Source: Bdellovibrionota bacterium (GTDB taxonomy: Bacteria > Bdellovibrionota_C > UBA2361 > JAAYZI01). Taken from it: 64,000 bases of DNA. The notes below the pieces were generated by a model that did not search any database, had not been told where the DNA came from, and saw only the letters and a program-made list of their open reading frames with translations. Both the position numbers and the translations under genes were made by a program. Shown here one piece after another: positions 41,325 to 61,237 of the stretch (positions are counted from its first letter, which is position 1; the number at the start of each line of letters is the position of its first letter). The stretch lies in the NCBI GenBank assembly GCA_050950765.1, contig JBMNIF010000003.1:352001-416000 (forward strand), written 5' to 3'.

Positions 41325-42889
41325 CCCAAACTTTTCTGTGATTTACGTAACAATAAAGTAACATATTGTTATAACCTATAGAAATTTTTTAAAAATTAAC
41401 AAAAAAGGGGGTTGACTTTTTTGTTGTTTTGACATACGTATTTAGGTATGGGAAAGAAAGCAAAAATACACCCTGATTGGGCAACAAAATATCGAGAGAA
41501 AGGAAAAGAGGTACGTCTTATCAATGGGAGATATTACCTATATAGCTACAGCTATAAGTATGACCCTGAGAGGAAAAGGAGCGTGAAAGTTACTGGTAAA
41601 TTACTTGGACGAATTACAGAAGAGGACGGTTTTATACCAAGTGAGAAGAGAAGCCTTGTACCTGCTGTGAATATTAAGTGCAGAGAGTATGGTTTATCTC
41701 AATTTATCCTCAATCAAAAAACAATTATTGAAAGACTTCGGTGTTATTTTCCAGATAAGTGGAAGGCTATTTTGCTGATGTCATACAGCAGGATCAAACA
41801 TTGCTCTCCTATTAAACGCATGAATGATGATTTTGAAAACAGTATGTTGAGTGAAAAACTTAATTTTCTTCTTAATAAGAAAGCTATTCCGAATATTTTG
41901 CAATCGATTGGGAAAGATGAATTTGCTCGTTCTGAATATATGAAGAGTTTTATTCATGGAAAAGATTTTTTGTTAATTGATTCTACATTTCTTAGAACAT
42001 CTATGAGAAAGTCGAGTCTTGCTAAAGGAGGATATAATAAAGACCATTTTTGGGAAACGCAGGCGAGTTTGCTTTATATTTACTCTAAAAAATTGCAACA
42101 ACCAGTCTATTATAGGTTATTGGCTGGGAATATAAGAGATGTAAAAGCTCTATCTTTAACTATCCAAGAATCAGAAATTGGTGATGCTACTATTATTGCA
42201 GATAAGGGTTTCTATTCAGAGTCTAACGTTAAAGATCTTATAGAGAATAAACTTAGCTTTGTTATTCCATTGCGTAGAAATAGCTCTCTTATAGACTATG
42301 ATGGAATAGAAACAAGCAGGAACGTTATTGAATATAATAAAACGTACTTAAGATATAAAAAATATAAGATTGGGAATGGATTTATATATCTGTTTAGAGA
42401 CCCGTTTTTAGCAGGTGAAGAGGAAAATAACTTAGTTTCATTAACAATATCTCATCCAGAAAAATACAATTTAACAGATGTTGATTTAAAAAAAGTGAGG
42501 CTAGGAACTGTTGCATTCTTTTCAAATTTGGACTCATCCGCAGAAGAAATATACACGTTATACAAAATGCGACTATCTATTGAACAATCTTTTGATACGT
42601 TAAAAACTGTTTTAAAAGCAGATGCTTCATATATGAGTGATGATGATAAATTTCAGGGATGGATGTTCGTGAATCACATAGCAATACAGTGGAGCTATGA
42701 AATATTAAAAACAATAAAAAAACATAAACTTTCGACTTCAATATCATTAGAAGATGCTATCAGAAGGTTATCTGAAATTAAAAAAGTTAGGCTTGGGGAC
42801 TCTTGGTATTTAGCCGAGCAAACTAAAGCAGAGCTAAAAATAGCCGAACTGTTACTTACTTAACATACGTAAAAAGGGGAAAGTTTGGG
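41325..42889 (+). mobile_element. Intact IS1634-like (IS4 superfamily DDE) insertion sequence
   Basis: Terminal IRs CCCAAACTTT...TTTACGTA / TACGTAAA...AAAGTTTGGG; 6-bp target duplication ATTGAA at 41319-41324 and 42890-42895. Confidence 0.9.
41448..42863 (+). CDS. IS1634-family DDE transposase
   Basis: LIDST, GYNKD, GNIRDV, IADKGFYS, YKMRLSIEQSFDTLK. Confidence 0.9.
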   Translation: MGKKAKIHPDWATKYREKGKEVRLINGRYYLYSYSYKYDPERKRSVKVTGKLLGRITEEDGFIPSEKRSLVPAVNIKCREYGLSQFILNQKTIIERLRCYFPDKWKAILLMSYSRIKHCSPIKRMNDDFENSMLSEKLNFLLNKKAIPNILQSIGKDEFARSEYMKSFIHGKDFLLIDSTFLRTSMRKSSLAKGGYNKDHFWETQASLLYIYSKKLQQPVYYRLLAGNIRDVKALSLTIQESEIGDATIIADKGFYSESNVKDLIENKLSFVIPLRRNSSLIDYDGIETSRNVIEYNKTYLRYKKYKIGNGFIYLFRDPFLAGEEENNLVSLTISHPEKYNLTDVDLKKVRLGTVAFFSNLDSSAEEIYTLYKMRLSIEQSFDTLKTVLKADASYMSDDDKFQGWMFVNHIAIQWSYEILKTIKKHKLSTSISLEDAIRRLSEIKKVRLGDSWYLAEQTKAELKIAELLLT

Positions 42890-43093: not shown

Positions 43094-44998
43094 ATGATAA
43101 ACGATTTAAGAATAAATTTTAAAACAGTTTTTGTGGCATTAATTGCCTCATTAGCTTTAGCGGTTTCACCTGCCATAGCTGGGCCTCAAGCAGGTCTTTC
43201 AGAAGGAGCTAGAAATTACAACAATTGCCCAGCATGTCCAGCTCCAACCTGCGACGATGTTGATCTACAACAGTGTTGCGGGCAGAATCCTCCTGTTCTT
43301 GAAATAGAGGAGAAGGGGATCGCTGAATTTGAACTTGGTTTAGTTCGTTGGTGCACAGTTGGAAAAAAATGGCAGATCTACGGTGTTTGTCAAGGCTTCC
43401 CAACTTGCAATGATGTTGATTTAAAAAAGTGTTGCCCAGCATGTCCAACACCGCCTCCAACTCCGAAGCCAACACCAAAACCTACACCGAAGCCTACTCC
43501 GACTCCTGAGTGCAAATATTATAAAGGCACACTGGATTCTTCAAATACCAAGAAAACAGGTCGTGACAATCTTCAGGTTTCAAATAAAACCAAAGTAAGT
43601 TGTATTGATCAGAAACTAGATACCCTAAAAAATGATTGCAAACATCGCGGTTATTATAGGGATGATTGTATAGCAGTCGGTCTTACAAAGATGTTCTTTG
43701 GTAATCTAAGTAAAACCTCAAGCTACAAACATGATAAATGGGGAGTAGATACTGGACAGTACAAAGACGATCTTAAAGATAATGCCAGAGCTAGTTACGG
43801 CACCTGCACAACAGCCGATTTTGCTAGTCATGCAGTATACAAAGGAAATAACGATATCTGCTTAAGTGGATACTTCTACTTTGATGAAAACTGCAATCCT
43901 ATCTCAGAAAAAGATGCTACCGATCTTTGCGGAAAGATGAATGTCTCGTTTCAATCAACCTTTGAATGGTCAACTCCGCTCTCCCTTATCTGGAAAGAGG
44001 GGCATGATATAAATGCAGAGGTTGTTTTCGCTAAGTTCAATCTTGATTTAAGCAGTTCTGAAAATGTTTGGTACGCTTGGAAAGCATCTGAAGAGGCTCC
44101 GCTTCTTGTGTATGATCCGAAGCACACCGGACTTATCACTGATGCTTCTCAACTCTTTGGTAACTGGACCTTTGGTGGAAAACAGTTAGCTTCTCTGATC
44201 TCTTCAGATTCCTACAACAGTGCAGGAAAATGGGAGAACGGCTTTGAAGCGTTAGCCAGCTTAGATAGAGATTTTGATGGCAAATTAAGTGGTGATGAGT
44301 TAAGTGACTTAGCACTCTGGTTTGACTCAAATAGAGACGGCATCTCTCAGAAGGGTGAAGTTAAGACTCTTAAAGAGGTAGATGTCACGGCTCTCTATTT
44401 CAATGGCTATAAGAAAGATGCAAAGAGTGGAGATTTAACTTTAGCTGTTGGCTATGAGAGAACTCTCAATGGTAAAACAGTACAAGGTGCCTCCATTGAC
44501 TGGAATGAAGTCGGAGCTCCTTCTAAGTTAGCATTGGCAGATTACTATGACCTTCTTCAAGGGCATACCGCACAAAACAGTGCAGCTGCAACAGATAGTA
44601 ATGAATTAAAGCCTGCTACTAATAAGAAGAGCTTTGCTGGTACTTGGAATTGGTACATTGATGAAGAGAGCGTCACTGATGATTCTCCATCAAACGGAAC
44701 CTTTATTATCAGTTCCAATGAGAACGGATCTTTCAAAGGCTTCTCCTTTGTAGAGAGACGCTTTGAGACTTCTCCAGACAGCAAGTTAAGCAGCTTTGTT
44801 AGTATGAATAGAATTGAGGGCAAAGAGGGATTAGTAAAAGGGATCCCAGCCGTTCAGTTTACCTCTCGTGTAGGTAACTCCTTCACGAACAACAAAGCGA
44901 CTTTCTCAGCTGATGGCAATACGCTTAGCGGCAAAACAGAAGTCGTTATCGCGGGAGGTAAGGGTATCTCATACTCTTGGAAAGCAGTAAGAAAGTAA
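43094..44998 (+). CDS. Secreted Cys-rich protein with PT/PK linker and FrpC-like Ca-binding self-processing-module homolog
   Basis: Signal peptide (AIA|G), duplicated CPACP/PTCxDVDLxxCC motifs, (PTPK)n, TPLSL...LFGN...NGFEALASLDRDFDG...LWFDSNRDGISQKGEVKTL. Confidence 0.8.
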   Translation: MINDLRINFKTVFVALIASLALAVSPAIAGPQAGLSEGARNYNNCPACPAPTCDDVDLQQCCGQNPPVLEIEEKGIAEFELGLVRWCTVGKKWQIYGVCQGFPTCNDVDLKKCCPACPTPPPTPKPTPKPTPKPTPTPECKYYKGTLDSSNTKKTGRDNLQVSNKTKVSCIDQKLDTLKNDCKHRGYYRDDCIAVGLTKMFFGNLSKTSSYKHDKWGVDTGQYKDDLKDNARASYGTCTTADFASHAVYKGNNDICLSGYFYFDENCNPISEKDATDLCGKMNVSFQSTFEWSTPLSLIWKEGHDINAEVVFAKFNLDLSSSENVWYAWKASEEAPLLVYDPKHTGLITDASQLFGNWTFGGKQLASLISSDSYNSAGKWENGFEALASLDRDFDGKLSGDELSDLALWFDSNRDGISQKGEVKTLKEVDVTALYFNGYKKDAKSGDLTLAVGYERTLNGKTVQGASIDWNEVGAPSKLALADYYDLLQGHTAQNSAAATDSNELKPATNKKSFAGTWNWYIDEESVTDDSPSNGTFIISSNENGSFKGFSFVERRFETSPDSKLSSFVSMNRIEGKEGLVKGIPAVQFTSRVGNSFTNNKATFSADGNTLSGKTEVVIAGGKGISYSWKAVRK

Positions 44999-45020: not shown

Positions 45021-45058
45021 ACGCCTGAGTCTTTTAAAAAAGGCTCAGGCGTTTTTTT
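45021..45058 (+). terminator. Rho-independent terminator
   Basis: ACGCCTGAGTCTT...AAGGCTCAGGCGT followed by a T tract. Confidence 0.88.
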
Positions 45059-45074: not shown

Positions 45075-46865
45075 CACCAATTAGGACACCCAAACTTCAA
45101 AATCACAATAATCTAATAATATCAAGATGTTAACAAAAGCTTAGAAATTGGCAGATCTGGTGCCACCCTTCAGTAGGACAGCTTGTCACTGGTGCCACCC
45201 ACCAGTGCTAAAAGCCTTTAAAATTACGATAGCTAATAATATCAATCCATCTAGTGACAACTGAACGGGCTGCAACTGCAAAACGAATCAGCTAGGTCTC
45301 GACGGAGGTTAAAAATCTGGTGCCACCCTTCAGCAAAAGGTGGGTGTCCTAATTGAAAAAGCCGCTAGAGCGGATCAGCTAGATCTCGACGGCGGCTTTG
45401 GTTTTAGTGCCACCCTTCAATAAGACGAGTTCTGTTGGATTTGGGCGGCTTTGAATCTGGTGCCACCCTTCAGCAAAAGGTGGGTGTCCTAATTAAAAAG
45501 TCAGTGACGCTTGAACGGGCTGCAACTAAAAATCAAATCAGCTAGGTCTGGACGGAGGTTAAAAATTTGGTGCCACCCTTCAGTAGGGCAGGCTGTCGCT
45601 GGTGCCACCCACCAGCGTCGCAGACGCTTTGCAAATAGGACACCCAAACTTCAAAATTATAACATCTAATAATATCAAGATGTTAGCAAAAGTTTAGGAT
45701 TCGGCAGATCTGGTGCCACCCTTCTTTGTTGCAGTTTGTCACTGGTGCCACCCACCAGTAAGAGCGGATTCCCTTCAAAGACAACTGGACGGGCTGTAAC
45801 TTGCAGAACAGATCAGCTAGATCTCGACGGGGGTTAAAAGTGGGTGTCCTAATTGAGGGGTGCTAGGCACTGGTGCCACCCACCAAGATGCTCCCCACTT
45901 CTTAGGGGCGCTTGAACGGGCTGCAACTGAAGACAGAACTAGCTAGATCTTCACGGAGGTAAAAGGTTGCCCATAAAAACAAATTGCTCTAATATTAACA
46001 GGTGGTTACAAGTTCGGCTTTAATCTGGCTTAATCGCTTGTTATAGCGGTATAAGCTCTCACTTTCCGAACAACTTTCACTAAGTACATAAAGAAATAAT
46101 CAAAGAAGGTGTTAGTTAATAAGATATGCGTCAAATAATTATCTTAACTCTATTATTTAATTACATATCTTCCCCAATAGCTTGGGGAGCTACACCTGAA
46201 GCATCTAAAAAATCACCTACCGAGCACTCCTCTAAAACAGATGCAAAGGTTGACCCTTCAATACTGCAAGAGCTAGAAGAACTTATTAAAAAATCCCCGC
46301 AATCTTCAGAAGCTCATTTTAATGTCGGTGTTGCTCAATATCGTTTATCGAAATATCAGGAGGCACTGGTGCCACCCACCAAGATGCTCCCCACTTCTTA
46401 GGGGCGGTTGGACGGGCTCAAACAGAAGAGCGGCTTTGGTTTTGGTACCACCCTTCAATAAGACGGGATCTACTAAATTTTGGCGGCTTTGAATTTGGTG
46501 CCACCCACCAGCGTCGCAGACGCTTTACAAATAGGACACCCAAACTTCAAAATTATAACATCTAATAATATCAAGATGTTAGCAAAAGTTTAGGATTCGG
46601 CAGATCTGGTGCCACCCTTCTTTGTTGCAGTTTGTCACTGGTGCCACCCACCAGTAAGAAGAGCGGATTCCCTTCAAAGACAACTGGACGGGCTGTAACT
46701 TGCAGAACAGATCAGCTAGATCTCGACGGGGGTTAAAAGTGGGTGTCCTAATTGAGGGGTGCTAGGCACTGGTGCCACCCACCAAGATGCTCCCCACTTC
46801 TTAGGGGCGGTTGGACGGGCTGCAACTAAAAATCAGATCAGCTAGGTCTGGACGGAGGTAAAAGG
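45075..46865 (+). repeat. Modular mosaic repeat array, locus 1
   Basis: 14 exact GGTGCCACCC anchors plus variants, GGACACCC/GGGTGTCCTAATT anchors, IHF-box modules and GATCAGCTAGATCTCGACGG modules. Confidence 0.92.
46126..46401 (+). pseudogene. Truncated duplicate of the 5' end of the TPR (batC-like) gene
   Basis: Near-identical to 47025-47260 (3 substitutions) up to 46361, then fused to a repeat module. Confidence 0.9.
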
Positions 46866-47024
46866 TTGCCCATAAAAACAAATTGCTCTAATATTAACAG
46901 GTGGTTACAAGTTCGGCTTTAATCTGGCTTAATCGCTTGTTATAGCGGTATAAGCTCTCACTTTCCGAACAACTTTCACTAAGTACATAAAGAAATAATC
47001 AAAGAAGGTGTTAGTTAATAAGAT

Positions 47025-48089
47025 ATGCGTCAAATAATTATCTTAACTCTATTATTTAATTACATATCTTCCCCAATAGCTTGGGGAGCTACACCTGAAG
47101 CATCTAAAAAATCACCTACCGAGCACTCCTCTAAAACAGATGCAAAGGTTGACCCTTCAATACTGCAAGAGTTGGAAGAACTTACTAAAAAATCCCCGCA
47201 ATCTTCAGAAGCTCATTTTAATGTCGGTGTTGCTCAATATCGTTTATCGAAATATCAGGAAGCTGTTAAATCTTTTGAAAAGGCAGCCCTCTTAAGTAAA
47301 GATGAGCACCTTACAGCTGAATGCCTCTATAATCTTGGGAACTCCTTTTACAAATCGGCTGAAGAAAGTTTGCAAACAGATCCGCAAGAAGCTTTAAAAC
47401 TTCTATCCCAAAGTGCAACATCATTCTCCGAATCCTTAAGGAGAGATCCAAGTAATCCCCTCTCCGGAAAGAATCTTGAGTTTACAAGAAAAACCATCCA
47501 GCGCCTTAAAACTGCTATGGAAAAGAAAAAACAGGAACAGCAAAAACAAGATCAAGCAAAAAAAGATCTGGAACAATTAAAGCGAGATCAGGAGAGCTTA
47601 AATAAGCAAACTAAAGAAACTGCCGCACAAGAAAAAGAGGATCCTTCAAATCAATCCAATCAGAACAATGAAGAAACTACCAAGCAAGCTAAAAAGCAAC
47701 AGGAGTTAAAACAGAAAGGATCAGAATTAAGAGATAAACTTTCAAATGAAAAGGCTGCCTCCGATCTGGAAGATGCCGTTAAAAATATGTCAGAAGCACA
47801 AAAAAATTTAACTCAAGGCAACCCACACCAAGCTGCTAAAAACCAAGAACAAGCTCTTAAAAATATCAACGAAGCGTTGAAAAAATTCTCGGAAGAAAAA
47901 CAGCAACAGAAAAAAGATCACGATAAAAACACTTCAAAAGATCCTGCTTCTCAGCAAAAGCAAGAGACCACACCACACCAAACGAACGACGAAGCTCAAA
48001 AGATTTTACAACAAGAACAGGAAAATCGTAACAGATATAACAGCGCCACTACTTCCGGTGGAATCGCATCTGTTGATAAGGATTGGTAA
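47025..48089 (+). CDS. Secreted TPR protein with Q/K/E-rich tail (BatC-like)
   Basis: Signal peptide, AHFNVGVAQY and LYNLGNSFY TPRs, C-terminal VDKDW. Confidence 0.82.
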   Translation: MRQIIILTLLFNYISSPIAWGATPEASKKSPTEHSSKTDAKVDPSILQELEELTKKSPQSSEAHFNVGVAQYRLSKYQEAVKSFEKAALLSKDEHLTAECLYNLGNSFYKSAEESLQTDPQEALKLLSQSATSFSESLRRDPSNPLSGKNLEFTRKTIQRLKTAMEKKKQEQQKQDQAKKDLEQLKRDQESLNKQTKETAAQEKEDPSNQSNQNNEETTKQAKKQQELKQKGSELRDKLSNEKAASDLEDAVKNMSEAQKNLTQGNPHQAAKNQEQALKNINEALKKFSEEKQQQKKDHDKNTSKDPASQQKQETTPHQTNDEAQKILQQEQENRNRYNSATTSGGIASVDKDW

Positions 48090-49927
48090 TGAATAATCAT
48101 CGTTATATATATTTTTTTCTCAGCTGTTTTTTACTATTCATGACTTTAATCGGCGATGCCGTAGCGGAGAATATTACAGCTTATGTACAGGTAGAGAATC
48201 AAGAAGTCTATTTGGGGGATTCTTTCGGATTACAGATCGTTGTTATCGGCGAAACGAAACCGGATGCTCCAGATCTTGAAGAGCTTGATAACTTTAAAGT
48301 TGAAACTCTCGGCGTAAGCAACTCAAGTAGCAGTAGCATCAGCATCATAAATGGCAGAAGACAAGAAAGCACTCAATACCAATATGTTTTCAATTACAGA
48401 TTGACACCAAAGACAACAGGAACTTTTACAATCCCATCCTTTACACTATCAGCTGCAGGGGAAAGTACCACAACAAAACCTCTAAAAATCAATGTAGTCA
48501 CTCCGAAAGGAGACCCTGATTATAAGTTGCGTCTTACACTTTCAAAAGACACCGCCTATGTCGGAGAAGCGCTCACTCTAAACATCACTTGGTATCTAGC
48601 AAGTGATGCCAGCAATTTTAATTTTTCATTACCTATTTTAGATGATCCCCGTTTTGCAGTACACCATCCAGAAGTTACTCCGCACAGTGGCAATGAATAT
48701 ATCCGTTTCCCGTTAGCAGGGCGTGATATCTTTGCGAAAAAAAGTTCCGCCGAGCTTGAAGGAAAATTCTATACTACCATCTCCTTTCAACAAATTATTA
48801 TTCCTAAACAGAGTGGCGAGATAGAATTGCCTAAAGGTGTCGTAACTGGGAAAAAGATTACAGGTTATAGCCGCCAAAATAGACGAACAGGTCTAATTAT
48901 CGGCGACCCTTTCTTTGATGATTTTTTTAATGCAAGGGAACCTATCTATCAACGTTTTGCCATACCCTCTAATCAACCTAAATTAACAGTTAAAGAGGTG
49001 CCGAGCACAGGGAAGCCTTACGACTTTACAGGTCTGATCGGCGATTATTCAATCATAGCTAACGCCACCCCCACCGATGTTAATGTAGGAGATCCTATAA
49101 CACTTACAATCGAAATTGCTGGTCCTAACTATATGGGGAACGTCTCAATTTACCCCTTAGAGAAACGTCAGGAATTAACAGGTGATTTTAAAGTCCCCGT
49201 AGAGATGGCAGCCCCTAAGATAAAACAGGGTATCGCAACATTTACGCAAACGATTAGACCCCTACGTCCTGATGTTAAACAGATTCCACCACTTAGATTA
49301 TCGTATTTTGATAGTAGTAAAGGAAAATACCTCACAACTTCTAGTGACCCGATCCCGTTAAAAGTAACATCAGCTAGAATTGTAACTGCACAAGACGCAG
49401 AGGGCACCACTTCTCCCATCCTTCAAACAACTACCTTAAAAACTTCAGCAGATGGAATTGTATATAATTACACTGACACCGCAAAGTTATTAGCAAAAGA
49501 AGTTGGCGCTACGCCCATTCAAAATAGCCCCTTCTGGATGTTTTTACTTATCGTTCCTTGCGGTCTGTATCTGATAATACTTGGAGTTCTCTCCTACAAA
49601 AGATTGAGTATGGCGGGGAGTAATAACGATGTTCGTAGTAACATTGCAGAGATCAAGAAACTTTGTCATGACAAAGCAGCACCGCAACAGATCCTTTCCG
49701 CATTCCGTAATTATCTCTCAAAAAAACTACTCCTCTCTGCAGGTTCCACAACATTTAAAGATATCGAACCTATCTTACAACAAAAAGGTATCTCATCGAC
49801 TCTCTTGGAAGAGATAAATACTTTCTTACAAGCACTTGAGGCGGCAAGTTATGCCGGAGCAGATGATGATACCGTACGTCCTCAAATGTTAAAAATCCTC
49901 AACAAGATGGAGAAAGAAATAAAATGA
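48083..49927 (+). CDS. batD: BatD family protein
   Basis: SSSISIINGRR, GTFTIPS, AYVGE, VNVGDPITLTI, LSYFD, C-terminal TM helix. Confidence 0.85.
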   Translation: MVMNNHRYIYFFLSCFLLFMTLIGDAVAENITAYVQVENQEVYLGDSFGLQIVVIGETKPDAPDLEELDNFKVETLGVSNSSSSSISIINGRRQESTQYQYVFNYRLTPKTTGTFTIPSFTLSAAGESTTTKPLKINVVTPKGDPDYKLRLTLSKDTAYVGEALTLNITWYLASDASNFNFSLPILDDPRFAVHHPEVTPHSGNEYIRFPLAGRDIFAKKSSAELEGKFYTTISFQQIIIPKQSGEIELPKGVVTGKKITGYSRQNRRTGLIIGDPFFDDFFNAREPIYQRFAIPSNQPKLTVKEVPSTGKPYDFTGLIGDYSIIANATPTDVNVGDPITLTIEIAGPNYMGNVSIYPLEKRQELTGDFKVPVEMAAPKIKQGIATFTQTIRPLRPDVKQIPPLRLSYFDSSKGKYLTTSSDPIPLKVTSARIVTAQDAEGTTSPILQTTTLKTSADGIVYNYTDTAKLLAKEVGATPIQNSPFWMFLLIVPCGLYLIILGVLSYKRLSMAGSNNDVRSNIAEIKKLCHDKAAPQQILSAFRNYLSKKLLLSAGSTTFKDIEPILQQKGISSTLLEEINTFLQALEAASYAGADDDTVRPQMLKILNKMEKEIK

Positions 49928-50882: not shown

Positions 50883-51241
50883 CCGCCAAAATCTAGCCGC
50901 TCACTCTACAATCTCAGCCCATTCAATTTTTTAACCCCCGTTAACATCTAGCTAATCCGTTCTGCATGGTTTCAGCCCATTCAATTTTTTAACCCCGTTA
51001 ACATCTAGCTAATCCATTCTGCATGGTTCCAGCCCGTTCAATTTTTTAACCCCCGTTAACATCTAGCTAATCCATTCTGCATGGTTCCAGCCCGTTCAAT
51101 TTTTTAATCCCCGTTAACACCTAGCTAATCCGTTCTGCAGGCTCCAGCCCGTTCAATCGTCATTGGAGGGTAAGAAAACGTCATTGGAGGATGAGAAAAC
51201 GTTATTGAAGAGTGAGGGAACGTCATTGAAGGGTAGCACCA
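50883..51241 (-). repeat. Mosaic repeat locus 2 (reverse orientation): 4 x 57-58 bp tandem plus 4 x 21 bp tandem
   Basis: CAGCCC recurs at 50915, 50973, 51030, 51088 and 51145; CGTYATTG at 51158, 51179, 51200 and 51221; ends in TGAAGGGTAGCACCA, a reverse anchor variant. Confidence 0.9.
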
Positions 51242-53001
51242 GTACAAGAGAACCTTTAAGTAGTTTGGTGCTATGAGTTAAAAAATTCTTAAACCGTTAA
51301 TGGATTATTTTTCCTAAATTCCCGTTTTTTTTATAGTCTACACCTTAGTATTTAATATTTTATCGATAAAAATCTTCTGGTCAATTTCTAATGCTTCTAA
51401 AATATCTTTTTGTTTTTTTGTTAATGGCTGTAGTAGCATGCTCAGATTTTCATTATCTATGCGTCTTATCATTTTAAGCGTTTCTAAAACTCTCTGAATG
51501 GTTTTTTTCTACTTTTTTGTTATTATTATTTATAGTTCTTTGTAGGTCTGACCACATAATTAAGCTAAGAAAGGAGACGAAGCTTTTGCCGTCAGTAGTT
51601 TTTTCATTATGTGTTAGCATACGGTCATTATCCAATTCATTTTTTAAATTATCGAAAGCTTTCTCAATAAAGTCTCGTCGTGAATAGATATGAAGTGCTT
51701 CTTGTGGTGTCATTGTTGAGTGGTTACTCAAAAAAGCAAAAACTCCTAGCATAGATAAGATATCGGTAATTTTTTCATGATCTCTTTCAAAACTTTCTAA
51801 CTGCACTTCTTTCTTAGTTTTTATTTTGTAGTATTTAGAGTAGCGACTCATACTCATAGGCTTTTTCATTTCTTTTAGTTCATCTTCTAATCTGTCAATA
51901 TGAGAGTAAAGAGTGCTCTCTTCCTCAGATGCACTTTTTGTATTTAAGTAAACGTAGAGAGAAAATTTTTCTCCATTTATCTCAATATCTTTTCTTACCC
52001 CATAACAATTTGTCCCAGATATGTGATTCCTAGAAGAGCGAAGAGTAACAGATGCTTCCCTCATAGTATCGTTATAATTTTTCTGAGATTTAGGAACAGC
52101 TACGAGAAATTCTATTTGCTCTTTTTTTATATATTCTAAATTTTCTTTTGTAATAAAACCTCTATCCAGAACATAAAATATATCATCAATACCTAAGCTT
52201 TTAGAGTATTCCATCATTGTTGTAAGAAAAACTTTATCAACAACACTTCCACTGTAAAGAAAAAAACTTATTGGTAAATTGCTGTCGGTAGCGTATAAAA
52301 GTCCGACATTTAGTTGTGGTAAATATTCTTTGTCTCTATTGTATCCATTCTCGGCAAGTGGCAAGTCTGCATAAGTAGAAAGGCTCGTAACATCATAAGC
52401 TACAGTCTCATTGTTTTTCATAGCATGGTTTTTCCACACAGAAAAAAACTTCATTTGATCTTGTTTGGTAATCGATGAAAAAAGCTCACTTGTCTTTTGC
52501 GAAGATAGAGATATGTTTTTAGGGGTAAGAGTATTTTGCAAAAAATTATCTATATTCATCATTACATTGCCTTCGCAAGCCATGTATAACGCAGTATAAA
52601 AGATATCTTCGTATTTATCGGGAAAGATTGTTTTTAAGCATTTTAATAACCCTATAGCCTCAGCTCTCATTTTTAATGCGACTACGTGACCTGCGTCCCA
52701 AACAAAGCGAGAAGAAGCTAGATCAATAACGTCAGATGGCATTGGATAATATTTTCTAAAGTTCTCATTAGGAATCATTCTTCCTTGTCTATCAGGGTCT
52801 ATCTTTCCCACAATCACTTCATCACAAGTAGGTGTGCCGTTCTTATTACGACGATGACCAAGTACGTGATACACATACTTTACGTTTCCTTTGCTATCTT
52901 TTTTATACGAAATCTGTGCTGGTTCAGCGTGAAATGGACATTTGAGGTGCTGAAAAAAGCTACTATAATAGCCTGAGTGATATTAACTAATGGGGTGAAT
53001 A

Positions 53002-53307
53002 ATGGGAAAACATTTTAGTGCAGAAGATAAGGTTAAGATACTGAAGGAGCATTTATTAGGAAATAAGCCGTTATCGAGTTTATGCGATAAATACGGCGTA
53101 CACATTAGTACATTTTATGAATGGCAGAAGCTATTATTTGAGGGAGCTATCCAAATTTTTGAGCGGAATAAAAATGGTAGGAAAGAAGAAAAGAAGCAAG
53201 CTGAACGGATAGATATTTTGGAGAAGAAGCTAACGAAGAAGGATTCTGCGCTAGCGGAGCTTTTGGGGCTTCATATAGATTTAAAAAAAAAGCTTGGGGA
53301 GCTTTAA
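53002..53307 (+). CDS. IS3-family OrfA (HTH)
   Basis: FSAEDKVKIL...LCDKYGVHISTFYEWQK; A9G -1 frameshift site at 53283-53292 with an adjacent AAGCT-TGGGG-AGCTT hairpin. Confidence 0.9.
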   Translation: MGKHFSAEDKVKILKEHLLGNKPLSSLCDKYGVHISTFYEWQKLLFEGAIQIFERNKNGRKEEKKQAERIDILEKKLTKKDSALAELLGLHIDLKKKLGEL

Positions 53308-53342
53308 CGAAGCGTTGGGTTGAGCCACAAATACGAGATGAG

Positions 53343-54305
53343 GTGATAGATTTTGTACATGAATGGCAAGAGAAATCAGAAATGAAGCGGGAGATGTTTA
53401 TAAAGAGGTTAGGGATAACACGGAGCAAGTACTATGCTTGGGAAAAACATTACGGTAAAGAGAACTTTCATAACGGGCTAATTCCGAGAGATTACTGGCT
53501 ATTACCCAGTGAAAGGGAGGCTATTATTAAGTATTATTTAGAGCACTCAAGAGTAGGTTATCGAGCATTAACATACATGATGCTTGACGCAGATGTTGTG
53601 GCAGTATCCCCTGCGACGACCTATAGAGTATTGAAAAGTGCTGGCTTAATGCGTTGCTGGAATGGTTTAAAAAGCAAGAAAGGGACAGGATTTGAACAAC
53701 CACTTAACCCGCATGAACATTGGCATACGGATGTTTCATATATCAATATTTGTGGCACATTTTACTATTTTATTGGAGTTTTGGATGGATGTAGTCGGTA
53801 TTTAGTTGCATGGGACATTAGAGAATCGATGAAAGAAATAGATATTGAAGTAGTATTACAAAAGGCTAGAGAAAGTTTTCCAGACGCAAGACCGCGAATT
53901 ATTTCAGATAACGGTTCAGCCTATATTTCAAAAGAGTTTAAGAATTTTATAAAGATATCTGGTATGACTCACGTCAAGACATCACCGTTCTATCCACAAT
54001 CGAACGGTAAGATGGAGAGATTTAATGGGACATTAAAAGTAGAAGCGATACGACCTAACACTCCAGTATCACTTGATGATGCGAAAACTATAGTGAGTAA
54101 GTTTGTCGAAGAATATAACAATCAGCGGTTACATTGTGCGCTAGGTTATATAACACCAAATGATAGATTGAATAACAAGCAAGAGGAGATATTTAGAGCT
54201 CGAGACAGCAAATTGGAAGCTGCTAGAGCACATCGCAAGTTAGTAAGAGAGGGGTACCCCTCTCTTACTAACTACAACATTGAACAACAAGCTCAGGTGT
54301 GTTAA
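53343..54305 (+). CDS. IS3-family OrfB (DDE core), normally fused to OrfA by -1 frameshift
   Basis: WHTDVSY, IISDNGS, PQSNGKMERFNGTLK, YNNQRLHCALGYITP. Confidence 0.92.
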   Translation: MIDFVHEWQEKSEMKREMFIKRLGITRSKYYAWEKHYGKENFHNGLIPRDYWLLPSEREAIIKYYLEHSRVGYRALTYMMLDADVVAVSPATTYRVLKSAGLMRCWNGLKSKKGTGFEQPLNPHEHWHTDVSYINICGTFYYFIGVLDGCSRYLVAWDIRESMKEIDIEVVLQKARESFPDARPRIISDNGSAYISKEFKNFIKISGMTHVKTSPFYPQSNGKMERFNGTLKVEAIRPNTPVSLDDAKTIVSKFVEEYNNQRLHCALGYITPNDRLNNKQEEIFRARDSKLEAARAHRKLVREGYPSLTNYNIEQQAQVC

Positions 54306-54837
54306 CTAGGGTTTTGTGGCATGACAAAAGTCCATTTCCATCAGAGGCAGAACAAATCTTTTTTTTCTGGAATTGGAATTGAAATATTTATTAAAGCCAT
54401 TTTGTGTCCTATTTTTTACTGTCCCGTAGACTACGGAAACATGTCTACAGAACAAAAAATGTCAATGGTTTTTTAAAAACTTTCATAAAAACTTAATTAA
54501 ATAAATATGTTGGAGGAAATATAATATTAGAAAATCTAAATATGAAATTAAATTATTGATATGGACTACATAAAAAACGGGAATTTAGGTATTTTTTAAC
54601 TTTTAGACTATCTCAGAACGCCTTCTTCTTTAAAAGCATTGCAGACTTTCTGTCGACGCTGCAATTGATGAGCTAAAAATTTTTTACTCCGACTCCTAAA
54701 AAGGGGTGGAAAAATTCTGTCCTCACTTCTTAACTCAAAATCAAGGAAATTTGTTAAAATTATTTAAAAATTCATTCTAAAAAAGTATCTGCACTCGAAG
54801 GACATGATATATCAATACACTTTAACGAACTCGGTTA

Positions 54838-56727: not shown

Positions 56728-58136
56728 TGGTGCCACCCTTCAGGGACAGCTGGGCAGGCTGATACGGCAAAACAGATCGGTTAGGTTTCTACGGAGGTTA
56801 AAAGTGGGTGTCCTAATTGGGGGCTAGATCTCGACGGAGGTTAAAAATTTGGCAGCAAGACGGGTGACGAATTTGGTGCCACCCTTCTTTGTTGCAGGCT
56901 GTCGCTGGTGCCACCCTTCAGCGCCGCAGACGCTTTGCAAATAGGACACCCAAACTTCAAAATCACAACATCTAATAATATCAAGATGTTAGCAAAAGTT
57001 TAAAATTCGACAGATCTGGTGCCACCCTTCAGTGACGCTTGAACGGAGGTTAAAAGTGGGTGTCCTAATTGGGCAGATCTGGTGCCACCCAACAAGATGC
57101 TCCCTCCACTTCTCAGGGGCGCTTGAACGGGCTGAAACTGTAGAACAGATCAGCTGGATCTTCACAGGGGTGAAAAGTGGGTGTCCTAATTGGCAGTGTC
57201 GACGGAGGTTAAAAATTTGGCAGCAAGACGGGTGACGAATTTGGTGCCACCCTTCTTTGTTGCAGGCTGTCGCTGGTGCCACCCACCAGCGCCGCAGACG
57301 CTTTGCAAATAGGACACCCAAACTTCAAAATCACAACATCTAATAATATCAAGATGTTAGCAAAAGTTTAAAATTCGACAGATCTGGTGCCACCCACCAA
57401 TAAGACGCGATCTGCTAGATTTGGACGGCTTTGGTTTCCACCCACCAATAAGACGGGATCTGCTAGATTTGGACGGCTTTGGTTTTGGCGCCACCCTTCA
57501 AGGACAACTGACCACCCACCAGTGCAGTTAAAAATTTGGTGCCACCCACCAGTGCAGAATCTTGGTTTAAAAGGATGAAGTCTTTAAAATCAATATGTTA
57601 GCACCTAACTAAAGATGGTTAGTTTTGGTGCCACCCAACAGCAAGACGGGATCTGTTGGATTTGGGTGGCTTTGGATCTGGTGCCACCCTTCAAGGACAA
57701 CTGAACGGGCTGCAACTAAAAATCAGATCAGCTAGATCTTCACGGAGGTTAAAAAGTGGGTGTCCTAATTAGCAGTGACGGCTGAATGGGCTGATGCTAA
57801 AAATCGAAGTAGCTAGATCTGGACGGAGGTTAAAAATTTGGAAAATTTGGTGCCACCCACCAGTGCAGAATCTTGGTTTAAAAGGATGAAGTCTTTAAAA
57901 TCAATATGTTAGCACCTAACTAAAGATGGTTAGCTTTGGTGCCACCCACCAGTAAGACGGGATCTGTTGGATTTGGGCGGCTTTGGATCTGGTGCCACCC
58001 AACAGCAAGACGGGATCTGTTGGATTTGGACGGCTTTGGTTTTGGTGCCACCCTTCAAGGACAACTGAATGGGCTGATACTAAAAATCGAAGCAGCTAGT
58101 TCTCGACGGAGGTAAAAAGTGCCACCCAGCAGTGCA
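56728..58136 (+). repeat. Modular mosaic repeat array, locus 3
   Basis: About 15 exact GGTGCCACCC anchors, the same modules as locus 1, and internal duplications at offsets 368 and 311. Confidence 0.92.
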
Positions 58137-59474: not shown

Positions 59475-61118
59475 TTACAATCCCAAAAGTTCTTTGGCAG
59501 ACTCTCTCGTAGCAGCAGTTATCTTATAACCTGCTAACATTCTTGCAATTTCATTAACCCTCTCATCCCCCGAAATCTCTCGAATCTTAGTTTTCGTACG
59601 CTCCCCCACCACCTTTTCTACTAGTAAGTGATGATCCCCCAAAGATGCTACTTGTGCAAGATGCGTAATACACAACACCTGTGAATGCTCACTCAAGCTC
59701 TTCAACTTATCTCCTACTGCTCTGGCCACACTGCCAGAAATACCAGAATCAACCTCATCAAAGATCAACACATTAACGCCACTACGATCTCGTAAAATCT
59801 TTTTAAGCACCAACATAATCCTCGAAAGCTCTCCACCTGAAGCTACCGACCGCAGCGGCTTGCACGGCTCCCCTTTATTTGTGCTGATCATCATCTCCAA
59901 TCTATCTTTCCCCGAAGGTGTAAGCTCCCCCTCAGAGATCACAACCTCTAACTTAGCTTCTGGCATATTTAGCTCTTTCAATTCACTAACAACCTGCTTA
60001 GCCAACGAGGCAGCCGCCTTCTTGCGCTTCCCCGAAAGCTCATCAGCCAACTTCGAAACAACTTTCTTCTTCTCGTCAACACCACTCCTTAAACGCTCAA
60101 AAGATTCCGGATCACTAATCTCATTAAGCTCCTTTTCCACACTCCCTTTTAACGCCGCCAGATCCGCATCGTTACACCGATACTTCCTCTCTAACCTCGC
60201 CACTTCCGCCAAATGATCCCTCTTACTATCTAATTCCTTTTGATCAACATCAATCGAAGAAACATAGTCACTAAGCGCTGCTTCAAAAATATGTAGAGCC
60301 TCTAAAGCAGCATCAGCCAACCCCTCTACCTCTGAAGCCCCCTCATCCAATTTACTCAGACTTGTTGCCATCTTTATAAGTTTTGAAAACTGCTCATAGA
60401 TCCCACCTTCATCATTTAACAACTGCCCAATCTGCGCAGATTCGGCAAGGATGCCTTCCGCATTCGCCATACGCCTAACAATATTTTCCAACTCCGCTCT
60501 AATACCAGCTCTTACCTCAACTTTTTTCAACTCCTCAAAGATATTCTCCAACTCCGCTCTACGAATGGCAGCGTGTTTCTGTTTTTGTGCAGCCTCCTCC
60601 AACTCCTTACAAGCTGCTTGCCAATCAACATAAGCTCCCCGATAACACTCAAGCAGTTCATCATTAGCCGCAAAACCATCTAACAACTCAAGGTGATAAC
60701 TCGGCTCTAATAAACGCACCTGCTGCCCCTGCCCACAGATATTAACTAAGCTAAGCGCAATCTCTTCAAGAAGAGAAACAGTCCCCAACCTTCCATTAAT
60801 ATAGATCTTGCCACGTCCTGCGCTATTCATACCACGCATCAAAAGCAACTCTTTCTCTTCGCCAACAATAGCAGGTAATGACGCTCTTAAACGTTCATCT
60901 AAAAAAGAGAGATCAAAAAGCGCCTCCACCTCCCAGCCGTCCGTGCCACTTCTTACATATTGCCCCTTAGGTCGCGCTCCAAGAATCAACTCCAACGCTT
61001 GTAACAACATCGATTTTCCAGAGCCAGTTTCCCCACTAATAACGTTCAACCCTGGTGTAAACGAGATATGCTCATCTTCAATGATCACAAAATTCTTAAT
61101 ATGCAGCTCCTGCAACAT
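59475..61118 (-). CDS. recN: DNA repair protein RecN
   Basis: SGETGSGKS, VASGGELSRIML, IFDEVDSGISG, QVLCITHLAQVA. Confidence 0.97.
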   Translation of the reverse strand: MLQELHIKNFVIIEDEHISFTPGLNVISGETGSGKSMLLQALELILGARPKGQYVRSGTDGWEVEALFDLSFLDERLRASLPAIVGEEKELLLMRGMNSAGRGKIYINGRLGTVSLLEEIALSLVNICGQGQQVRLLEPSYHLELLDGFAANDELLECYRGAYVDWQAACKELEEAAQKQKHAAIRRAELENIFEELKKVEVRAGIRAELENIVRRMANAEGILAESAQIGQLLNDEGGIYEQFSKLIKMATSLSKLDEGASEVEGLADAALEALHIFEAALSDYVSSIDVDQKELDSKRDHLAEVARLERKYRCNDADLAALKGSVEKELNEISDPESFERLRSGVDEKKKVVSKLADELSGKRKKAAASLAKQVVSELKELNMPEAKLEVVISEGELTPSGKDRLEMMISTNKGEPCKPLRSVASGGELSRIMLVLKKILRDRSGVNVLIFDEVDSGISGSVARAVGDKLKSLSEHSQVLCITHLAQVASLGDHHLLVEKVVGERTKTKIREISGDERVNEIARMLAGYKITAATRESAKELLGL

Positions 61119-61237
61119 TTTTTTCCTTTTCCTAACCGATTTTAATTACCTTACCCGAAACACTTGCAACCCTTGCAACATTTTTTTCCTTTTCTAACCG
61201 ATCTCAAACTATCTTACCCGAAACACTTGAAGCTCCT
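61102..61237. repeat. About 2 copies of a 63-bp tandem duplication spanning the recN RBS and start codon
   Basis: TGCAACATTTTTTTCCTTTT at 61111 and 61174; TTACCCGAAACACTTG occurs twice. Confidence 0.85.

Follow-up and report, generated by a model that had tools for sequence, protein, structure and literature searches.

TIRYT elements, or TIRtrons, carry a RAYT-like Y1 gene between inverted repeats (TIRs) that are unrelated to GTAG REPs and also occur dispersed; in its accessible part, PMC3733652 describes TIR families as moderately abundant, present as singles, dimers or clusters, and leaves cleavage or mobilisation of the TIRs by the enzyme as future work. The TIRYT-type Y1 enzymes fall within the second largest TnpA-Y1 subclass (PMC6006769). 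When a HUH enzyme cuts a single strand, the 5' end becomes attached to a tyrosine of the enzyme and a 3'-OH is set free, and TnpA-REP of E. coli cleaves >400 nt from its site; a model of nicking, priming and re-joining was proposed for the growth of BIMEs and the capture of flanking genes (PMC3333891; PMC8266576). Among the RAYTs, group 1 is the most IS-like, with a near-identical copy in 6.3% (10.1101/119735). Statements on these papers refer throughout to the portions of their text that were available. In the literature searched, no TIRYT-type enzyme was shown to cut, move or amplify anything.

An array of repeats at 45075-46865 of the window (the whole stretch of 64,000 nt that was analysed) had been described in an earlier note as an unnamed mosaic family with anchor sequences private to its lineage. 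The array is organised around two words, TGGTGCCACCC (anchor A) and TAGGACACCC (anchor B). It is neither unnamed in kind nor private, as the anchors correspond to the terminal repeats of elements of the TIRYT/TIRtron type (PMC3733652) and recur beside homologous genes of other genomes. Each anchor goes with its own Y1 gene, termed enzyme A and enzyme B in the following. It is likely that these enzymes build the arrays, and likely too that they duplicate nearby host DNA. Newly described here is a polarity: low-overlap junctions lie mostly just 5' of anchors, and those long host duplications that are close to arrays lie on the 5' side.

Judged by sequence, both elements are TIRtrons under the definition of Di Nocera, because a Y1 gene is flanked by TIRs unrelated to GTAG REPs, and the TIRYT/TIRtron type is the closest known kind. 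Inverted non-GTAG repeats flank all six copies of enzyme A, enzyme B and homologues, and enzyme A has the HUH motif and catalytic tyrosine of the RAYT/IS200 type together with a predicted fold like that of TnpA-REP (4ER8). Of the motif GGGGWSAS, which PMC3733652 states for some TIRs only, anchor A matches 6/8 positions (GGTGCCAC) and anchor B the last six, and one homologue (L009) matches it exactly (GGGGTCAC/GGGGTCAG). The present case differs from the TIRYTs in its 943 copies, with ~2.5% of the genome lying between chained anchors, in one-way kilobase mosaics that mix the words of two enzymes, in six near-identical gene copies and in the polar duplication of host DNA, which was not found in the accessible part of PMC3733652. 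Likewise, neither these anchors nor a polar duplication were described in the literature searched, where figures and supplements of PMC3733652 may list related TIRs; the 10 hits listed, of 45 for the bare word, were unrelated.

The arrays are not classical REP/BIMEs because there is no GTAG foot, mostly no hairpin, and 847/872 adjacent A anchors are co-oriented (25 are opposite). The likeness to E. coli REP/BIMEs (PMC3333891; PMC8266576) lies in intergenic mosaics, an IHF box in the linker and a cognate Y1 enzyme of the same predicted fold, and amplification by nicking, priming and re-joining with capture of flanking gene pieces would fit. Unlike REPs, however, the anchor shows no GT[AG]G foot in its base profile and a stem of at least 5 bp at only 215/943 sites; the BIME-like build suggested earlier does not apply, as the arrays run one way and consist of direct repeats instead of inverted dimers, only A-B neighbours being often inverted (121 versus 34 in the same orientation). 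Moreover, no C|T like that of the E. coli system was seen at junctions, where later processing could have blurred it, and the enzyme is multi-copy here, whereas it is single and fixed in E. coli (available text of the same two papers). The arrays work like BIMEs but fail two REP features, foot plus hairpin and inverted pairing. The 16-mers flanking RAYT group 1 average 12 occurrences (10.1101/119735), whereas the anchor runs to hundreds. MITEs of DDE transposases have fixed ends and a target-site duplication; here ends are ragged and no duplication was seen by eye. A CRISPR-like reading was discarded, as the word has 11 nt and the 'spacers' recur and vary greatly in length.

Anchor words and modules of the arrays

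The features in and around the array are as follows (positions of the window).

45075..45964, +: first half of the array, with 10 A anchors (9 exact) and B anchors in both orientations
within 45075..45964, +: module D, E-like module and IHF-box module
45082..45091, +: B anchor TAGGACACCC, terminal word of the enzyme-B family
45636 and 46532, +; 45342, 45482, 45842 and 46741, -: other B anchors
45120..45132, +: putative IHF site, a match (TATCAAGATGTTA) to the IHF consensus, WATCAANNNNTTR; also at 45673 and 46569
45158..45168, +: first A anchor TGGTGCCACCC, the word at the ends of the six enzyme-A elements
45190, 45318, 45405 (1 mismatch), 45458, 45568, 45600, 45711, 45743 and 45871, +: other A anchors
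46367, 46443 (1 mismatch), 46496, 46607, 46639 and 46770, +: other A anchors, continued
45600..46361, +: copy 1 of a near-tandem duplication, 766 nt, 97.8% identical to 46496-47260, offsets 896-899
45965..46361, +: captured host DNA, comprising ~79 codons from the start of a TPR gene and the region upstream of it
46126..46401, +: truncated ORF of 91 aa, its last 12 residues read from the anchor region
46361..46377, +: novel junction (exact overlap 1 nt) at which gene sequence continues 5-6 nt 5' of an A anchor
46361..46863, +: second half of the array, with 6 A anchors (5 exact) and 2 B anchors
47025..48089, +: intact TPR gene, with a weak BatC-like match
48083-49927: BatD gene following the TPR gene; host operon with the duplicated start
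50915..51241, -: degenerate array with one 1-mismatch anchor (51231-51241) and tandems of 21 nt (x3.7) and of 58-nt module D (x4.2)
56728..58133, +: third array, with 15 exact A anchors, 6 B anchors and 4 IHF-consensus matches

Between 45075 and 46870, TGGTGCCACCC occurs exactly 14 times and always on the + strand, just as counted earlier, and 16 times when one mismatch is allowed. TAGGACACCC was found three times on + and four times on -, in agreement with the earlier observation that module C is the reverse complement of the start of module B: the two are one motif in two orientations. Four exact copies of ACGGGCTGCAACT are present. The start of module E, AAGACGGGATCT, is exact just once in the main array. 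The family had also been said to recur at two places. At 56.7-58.1 kb this was borne out by 15 exact anchors, all on +, and there the module order differs from that of the main array; at 50.9-51.2 kb the 58-nt module-D tandem and one 1-mismatch anchor on - were recovered, but no exact anchor. An Rfam search of the window from 43 to 60 kb gave no match. Immediately left of the array, a strong hairpin with a T run (45021-45058) is probably the terminator of ORF 43094-44998, whose 634-aa product is without a Pfam match.

In the near-tandem duplication, the sequence of the first copy changes after the start of the TPR gene to that found 5-6 nt ahead of an anchor, with the same leader as at 45865 and 46764. 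Contigs of the sequencing runs X2 and X4 break at 47260, matching the place of this junction, as a duplication would cause; these runs may represent the assembled strain itself. At 47260 the contigs of X9 (depth 2) and of X6 (depth 10), the latter a diverged strain, are continuous, and therefore the duplication may be strain-specific. The array flanks and pieces of the array are represented in contigs of four public runs, and since none of the pieces listed spans the array, the module order is that of the assembly alone. Joins of arrays to their flanks, as well as pieces, were recovered from runs of four studies, and the depth summed over the arrays is very high.

In the whole genome (G000; 2.64 Mb, 5 contigs), 943 exact A anchors were counted against 0 for the reversed word, which is far above chance; none of 60 relatives, most of them fragmented assemblies, had more than 37. 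The intergenic placement reported earlier was confirmed, as 934 anchors lie outside long ORFs and just 9/943 within ORFs of at least 200 aa. In contrast, the small set of reusable modules was an oversimplification: the 892 inter-anchor segments, chained over 65.6 kb (2.5% of the genome), comprise 783 distinct sequences and 335 clusters at the clustering threshold chosen, the top 16 accounting for 38%. All 79 arrays with at least four segments differ in order (79/79), and the commonest anchor spacings are 79, 53 and 88 nt. IHF-consensus matches lay within 80 nt of anchors in 136/390 cases, with anchors covering 3.8% of the genome. No genome-wide bias of array orientation relative to GC skew or replication strand was found, and orientation to mechanically called ORFs showed a weak pattern (46 convergent, 13 divergent, 37 with and 19 against tandem genes). 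On contig C2, from ~460 to 810 kb around a GC-skew switch at ~590 kb, exact-anchor arrays are nearly absent and only eroded arrays with broken anchors occur. By eye, TTAGAATTTGGCA is common to L001:1320-1335, upstream of an enzyme-A gene, and the end of the IHF-box module, hinting that modules may derive from subterminal DNA of enzyme-A-type elements.

Two Y1 enzymes and their homologues

The earlier note had linked the anchors to HUH Y1 enzymes encoded elsewhere and proposed a search for anchor-flanked PF01797 genes. This proved correct, with two kinds of enzyme, one per anchor. The PF01797 search of the genome returned six enzyme-A genes above the cut-off, at six places, and at each of them the A anchors on either side point inward. 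Another Y1 gene, the seventh and of a different kind (enzyme B, C1:418 kb), lies between inward words of the second anchor, GGACACCC, and the arrays around it are rich in B anchors. The left end of the enzyme-A elements consists of an array of TTC-type anchors, module D and a short pair of A and inverted A, and the right end carries an ACCA-type anchor, so that the suffix classes TTC and ACCA noted earlier match the left and right element ends. At right ends, pieces run from the anchor into the element and then jump back to just before an anchor; one such jump lands 12 nt out, in host DNA. A target duplication was not seen by eye at the ends of enzyme-A elements or arrays, which are ragged. 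The six ORFs differ at 0-14/969 nt (98.5-100% identity, two identical), and 15/18 variable sites are synonymous. Arrays cluster near these genes: 26/94 lie 2.5-25 kb from an enzyme-A copy, compared with 8.5 expected and a maximum of 21 in 2000 simulations.

Enzyme A has 322 aa with the motifs NHFH and YIYINP, and H61, H63, Y121, N125 and P126 are invariant in 15 homologues. Its model (pLDDT 88.5) matches the fold of E. coli TnpA-REP 4ER8 (E 5e-7; Z 14.3, rmsd 2.8, 154 aligned), and no clear match to the C-terminal half was obtained in the fold search of 48,161 chains with the whole model as query. The motifs NHFH and YIYINP (YxxxNP) and the proximal GCSS, with its SS, resemble subclass 2.1 of the class 2 TnpA-Y1 enzymes (PMC6006769). 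In this subclass, however, a C-terminal HTH/DnaA-C-like domain is described, whereas no HTH Pfam family was detected at E<=0.1 in 15 enzyme-A-family proteins; in addition, the median length given in that paper is 238 aa, and class 2 enzymes are low-copy with low identity between copies (49% mean), in contrast to 322 aa and six copies of 98.5-100% identity here. As no HTH was detected and the copies are near-identical, unlike class 2, enzyme A was not filed under 2.1. An assignment to IS200/IS605 was rejected, for which ~150 aa and YxxxQ are expected and NF033573 gave 18 bits against a cut-off of 55. The translation of enzyme B contains WE, YVDLNP, TS and a long insertion and appears 2.3-like when read against Table 1 of PMC6006769, where ~325 aa are expected. 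According to that paper, no flanking repeats were found for subclasses 2.1 and 2.3, whereas GGACACCC points inward at 15/19 enzyme-B homologue loci fetched out of 33 matches listed.

Homologues of enzyme A occur in 55/60 genomes of the same order, and the record titles of further ones name Bdellovibrionota and unclassified proteobacterial MAGs. The A anchor itself points inward around homologues in G025 (two loci) and G040, the right-end anchor of the latter with one mismatch. By a 14-mer test (at least 12 matches), an own inverted word was detected in 13/33 true upstream/downstream pairs compared with 10/163 mixed pairs, leaving 20/33 enzyme-A-family loci without a clear one. These own words are often stuttered in one direction, and five of them had 25, 4, 13, 5 and 15 copies in their own genome and 0-1 in the other four. 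In many genomes of the order (L013-L036), the enzyme-A family is represented by several divergent genes (as many as 19 matches), and each of these seems to have a word of its own. One genome, G019 (92% complete), has 37 A anchors and no match to enzyme A or B; at its loci L042-L044 the anchor occurs in small stutters and in inverted pairs with 70-150 nt between them, several at ~120 nt. In the short flanks available, TRF (period of at least 60) gave 7 rows at 37 enzyme-A-family loci and 1 at 19 enzyme-B loci.

Polarity of junctions and host duplications

After removal of indel-like slips, 82 local junctions with low overlap (0-4 nt) were sorted by position, taking 16 nt as the maximal distance from an anchor. 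They fell 35 times on the 5' side and 16 times on the 3' side (P 0.005), 11 times inside anchors and 20 times elsewhere, where events are not independent and the recombinant member of a junction triad is ambiguous. The preference persisted with stricter required matches (11 versus 3, n=25; 8 versus 1, n=15). Half of the junctions (41/82) have zero overlap, and distances from the anchor are spread over 1-14 nt. Rearrangement at the anchors, as inferred earlier, is therefore not what was found: new junctions lie mostly a few bases 5' of anchors, at variable positions. No fixed cut dinucleotide was present on either side of zero-overlap junctions, which later processing could have blurred. An enrichment of 47/108 junctions was dropped in favour of the symmetric comparison of both sides, being inflated because the anchor itself supplies the match, and two earlier capture screens, swamped by degenerate modules, were not counted.

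Perfect tandem duplications (21 rows) comprise 11 with an overlap of <=5 nt and 7 with a whole anchor in the overlap. In a self-comparison, 22/25 local repeats overlapping genes were without any anchor; leaving out paralogue pairs and a single long-distance repeat, 11 tandem blocks remained, of which 10 have an anchor within 3 kb (null 32%), each block being on the 5' side by its coordinates. With TRF, 29 anchor-free, non-intragenic duplications with units of at least 100 nt were then listed, apart from 87 rows of the array class, 53 short ones and 18 within genes; the first 11 cases were already known when the cut-offs of 100 nt and 3 kb were chosen. Thirteen of the 29 lie within 3 kb 5' of any anchor and two on the 3' side, one of these two on both sides. 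When only arrays with at least four anchors were considered, 12/29 lay 5' of an array at up to 3 kb (null 9.7%) and 0 lay 3' of one (null 8.3%; P 7e-6), and 10 arrays account for the 12. Of the 20 duplications that TRF added to the first set, only 4 were located 5' of an array (~2 expected) and 0 on the 3' side.

Several arrays with 5' duplications have no B anchors, by our reading of GC skew such duplications occur in both fork orientations, and transcription runs toward the array in 83 5' flanks and 65 3' flanks; therefore neither B nor fork direction nor transcription alone can give 12:0. The genome is duplication-prone in any case, as 17/29 long anchor-free duplications have no array close by on the side in question and many tandems of 45- and 81-nt units are unrelated to anchors; the 53 short anchor-free duplications, mostly of ~45/81-nt units, show no side preference (9/17). 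Anchor-free tandem repeats of 78 nt and 63 nt are also found in the window at 2444-2689 and 61111-61229.

Proposed mechanism and its alternatives

The reading that we prefer, with a probability of roughly two in three, is that the arrays are chains of segments headed by the 11-base word and that enzyme A grows and shuffles them through nicking on the 5' side, copying by the host and re-joining. The enzyme would bind the anchor on single-stranded DNA, nick 5' of it, usually 3-14 nt away and sometimes up to ~2.5 kb, and remain on the 5' end via its tyrosine, while the free 3'-OH would prime displacement synthesis; a 3'-OH further along would attack the phosphotyrosine and produce a tandem copy. 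A copy reaching past the anchor would give a new module or captured 3' host DNA, such as the gene start in the window, and one stopping short an anchor-free host duplication. Host recombination between anchors and modules would then mix the order, and an inward anchor pair would let the whole gene unit, or gene-less A...B units, move. A single one-sided reaction would in this way account for one-way arrays, new modules, the captured gene start and anchor-free duplications. Several observations speak against it: the lack of a fixed cut dinucleotide, unlike the C|T of characterised TnpA-REP, the whole anchor in the overlap of 7/21 tandem duplications, as plain homologous crossing-over gives, the 17/29 long anchor-free duplications located elsewhere in a duplication-prone genome, the 20/33 enzyme-A-family loci with no clear inverted word, the lack of a visible target duplication at enzyme-A elements and the 37 anchors of G019 with no enzyme-A match. 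More tentatively, and with clearly less confidence, an order-wide, TIR-bounded and still mobile HUH family might act as a polar, word-directed duplicator that recognises a non-palindromic 11-mer, nicks on its 5' side at no fixed dinucleotide and at distances between a few bases and ~2.5 kb, and gives rise both to one-way arrays and to tandem duplications of host promoters and gene ends.

The anchors inside overlaps, together with the missing cut site, the 53 short and 17 long duplications that bear no relation to the 5' flanks of arrays and the anchor-free module-D tandem at 50.9-51.2 kb, would be expected if the enzymes seeded isolated end words only and slippage and unequal recombination of the host grew the arrays in a duplication-prone genome. 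We consider this unlikely, because half of the new junctions have no overlap and favour the 5' side, host duplications are polar (12 versus 0) in leading and lagging orientations alike by the GC-skew reading, and arrays cluster near enzyme genes. That the polarity reaches 0.6-2.5 kb, beyond the >400 nt cleavage range of E. coli TnpA-REP, would be expected if arrays bound by protein (enzyme, IHF or other) form a one-way obstacle or Chi-like signal at which the host switches template, the transposase making no joins; the 136/390 IHF-consensus matches near anchors (3.8% of the genome) and the mixed overlaps at junctions of long duplications point the same way. A Chi-like word should show an orientation link to GC skew. 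Array orientation shows none, junctions pile up 3-14 nt 5' of anchors, and throughout the order it is Y1 elements that have the anchors as their ends, which makes such a barrier quite improbable. Least credible of all is that arrays or their module order are largely assembly artefacts: although none of the contigs listed spans the array and relatives, in fragmented assemblies, show <=37 copies, the copies here are diverged (783/892 segments distinct, 79/79 arrays different), and array-flank joins and pieces recur in runs of four studies at very high summed depth.

If polar duplication by the enzyme is true, such elements would be a local source of bacterial promoter and gene-end duplication, beyond repeats. 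Two pairs of enzyme and word, ~1000 natural products and a directional footprint, from which the cut strand and the side of the cut can be predicted, make recognition of a hairpin-free target by TIRYT-type enzymes directly testable in this genome.

Insertion elements of another kind neighbour the arrays. An IS1634-family element with a nested IS3 element occupies 51306-54589 (ORF 51474-52874, ends CCTAAATTCCCG), with a flanking repeat of 6-7 nt, TATTTT; a contig of X6 joins 51305 to 54590 and represents its empty site. A second IS1634-family transposase gene lies at 41448-42863, and a related end sequence, CCCTAACTC, interrupts arrays elsewhere, for example at G000:C2:811840-813423.
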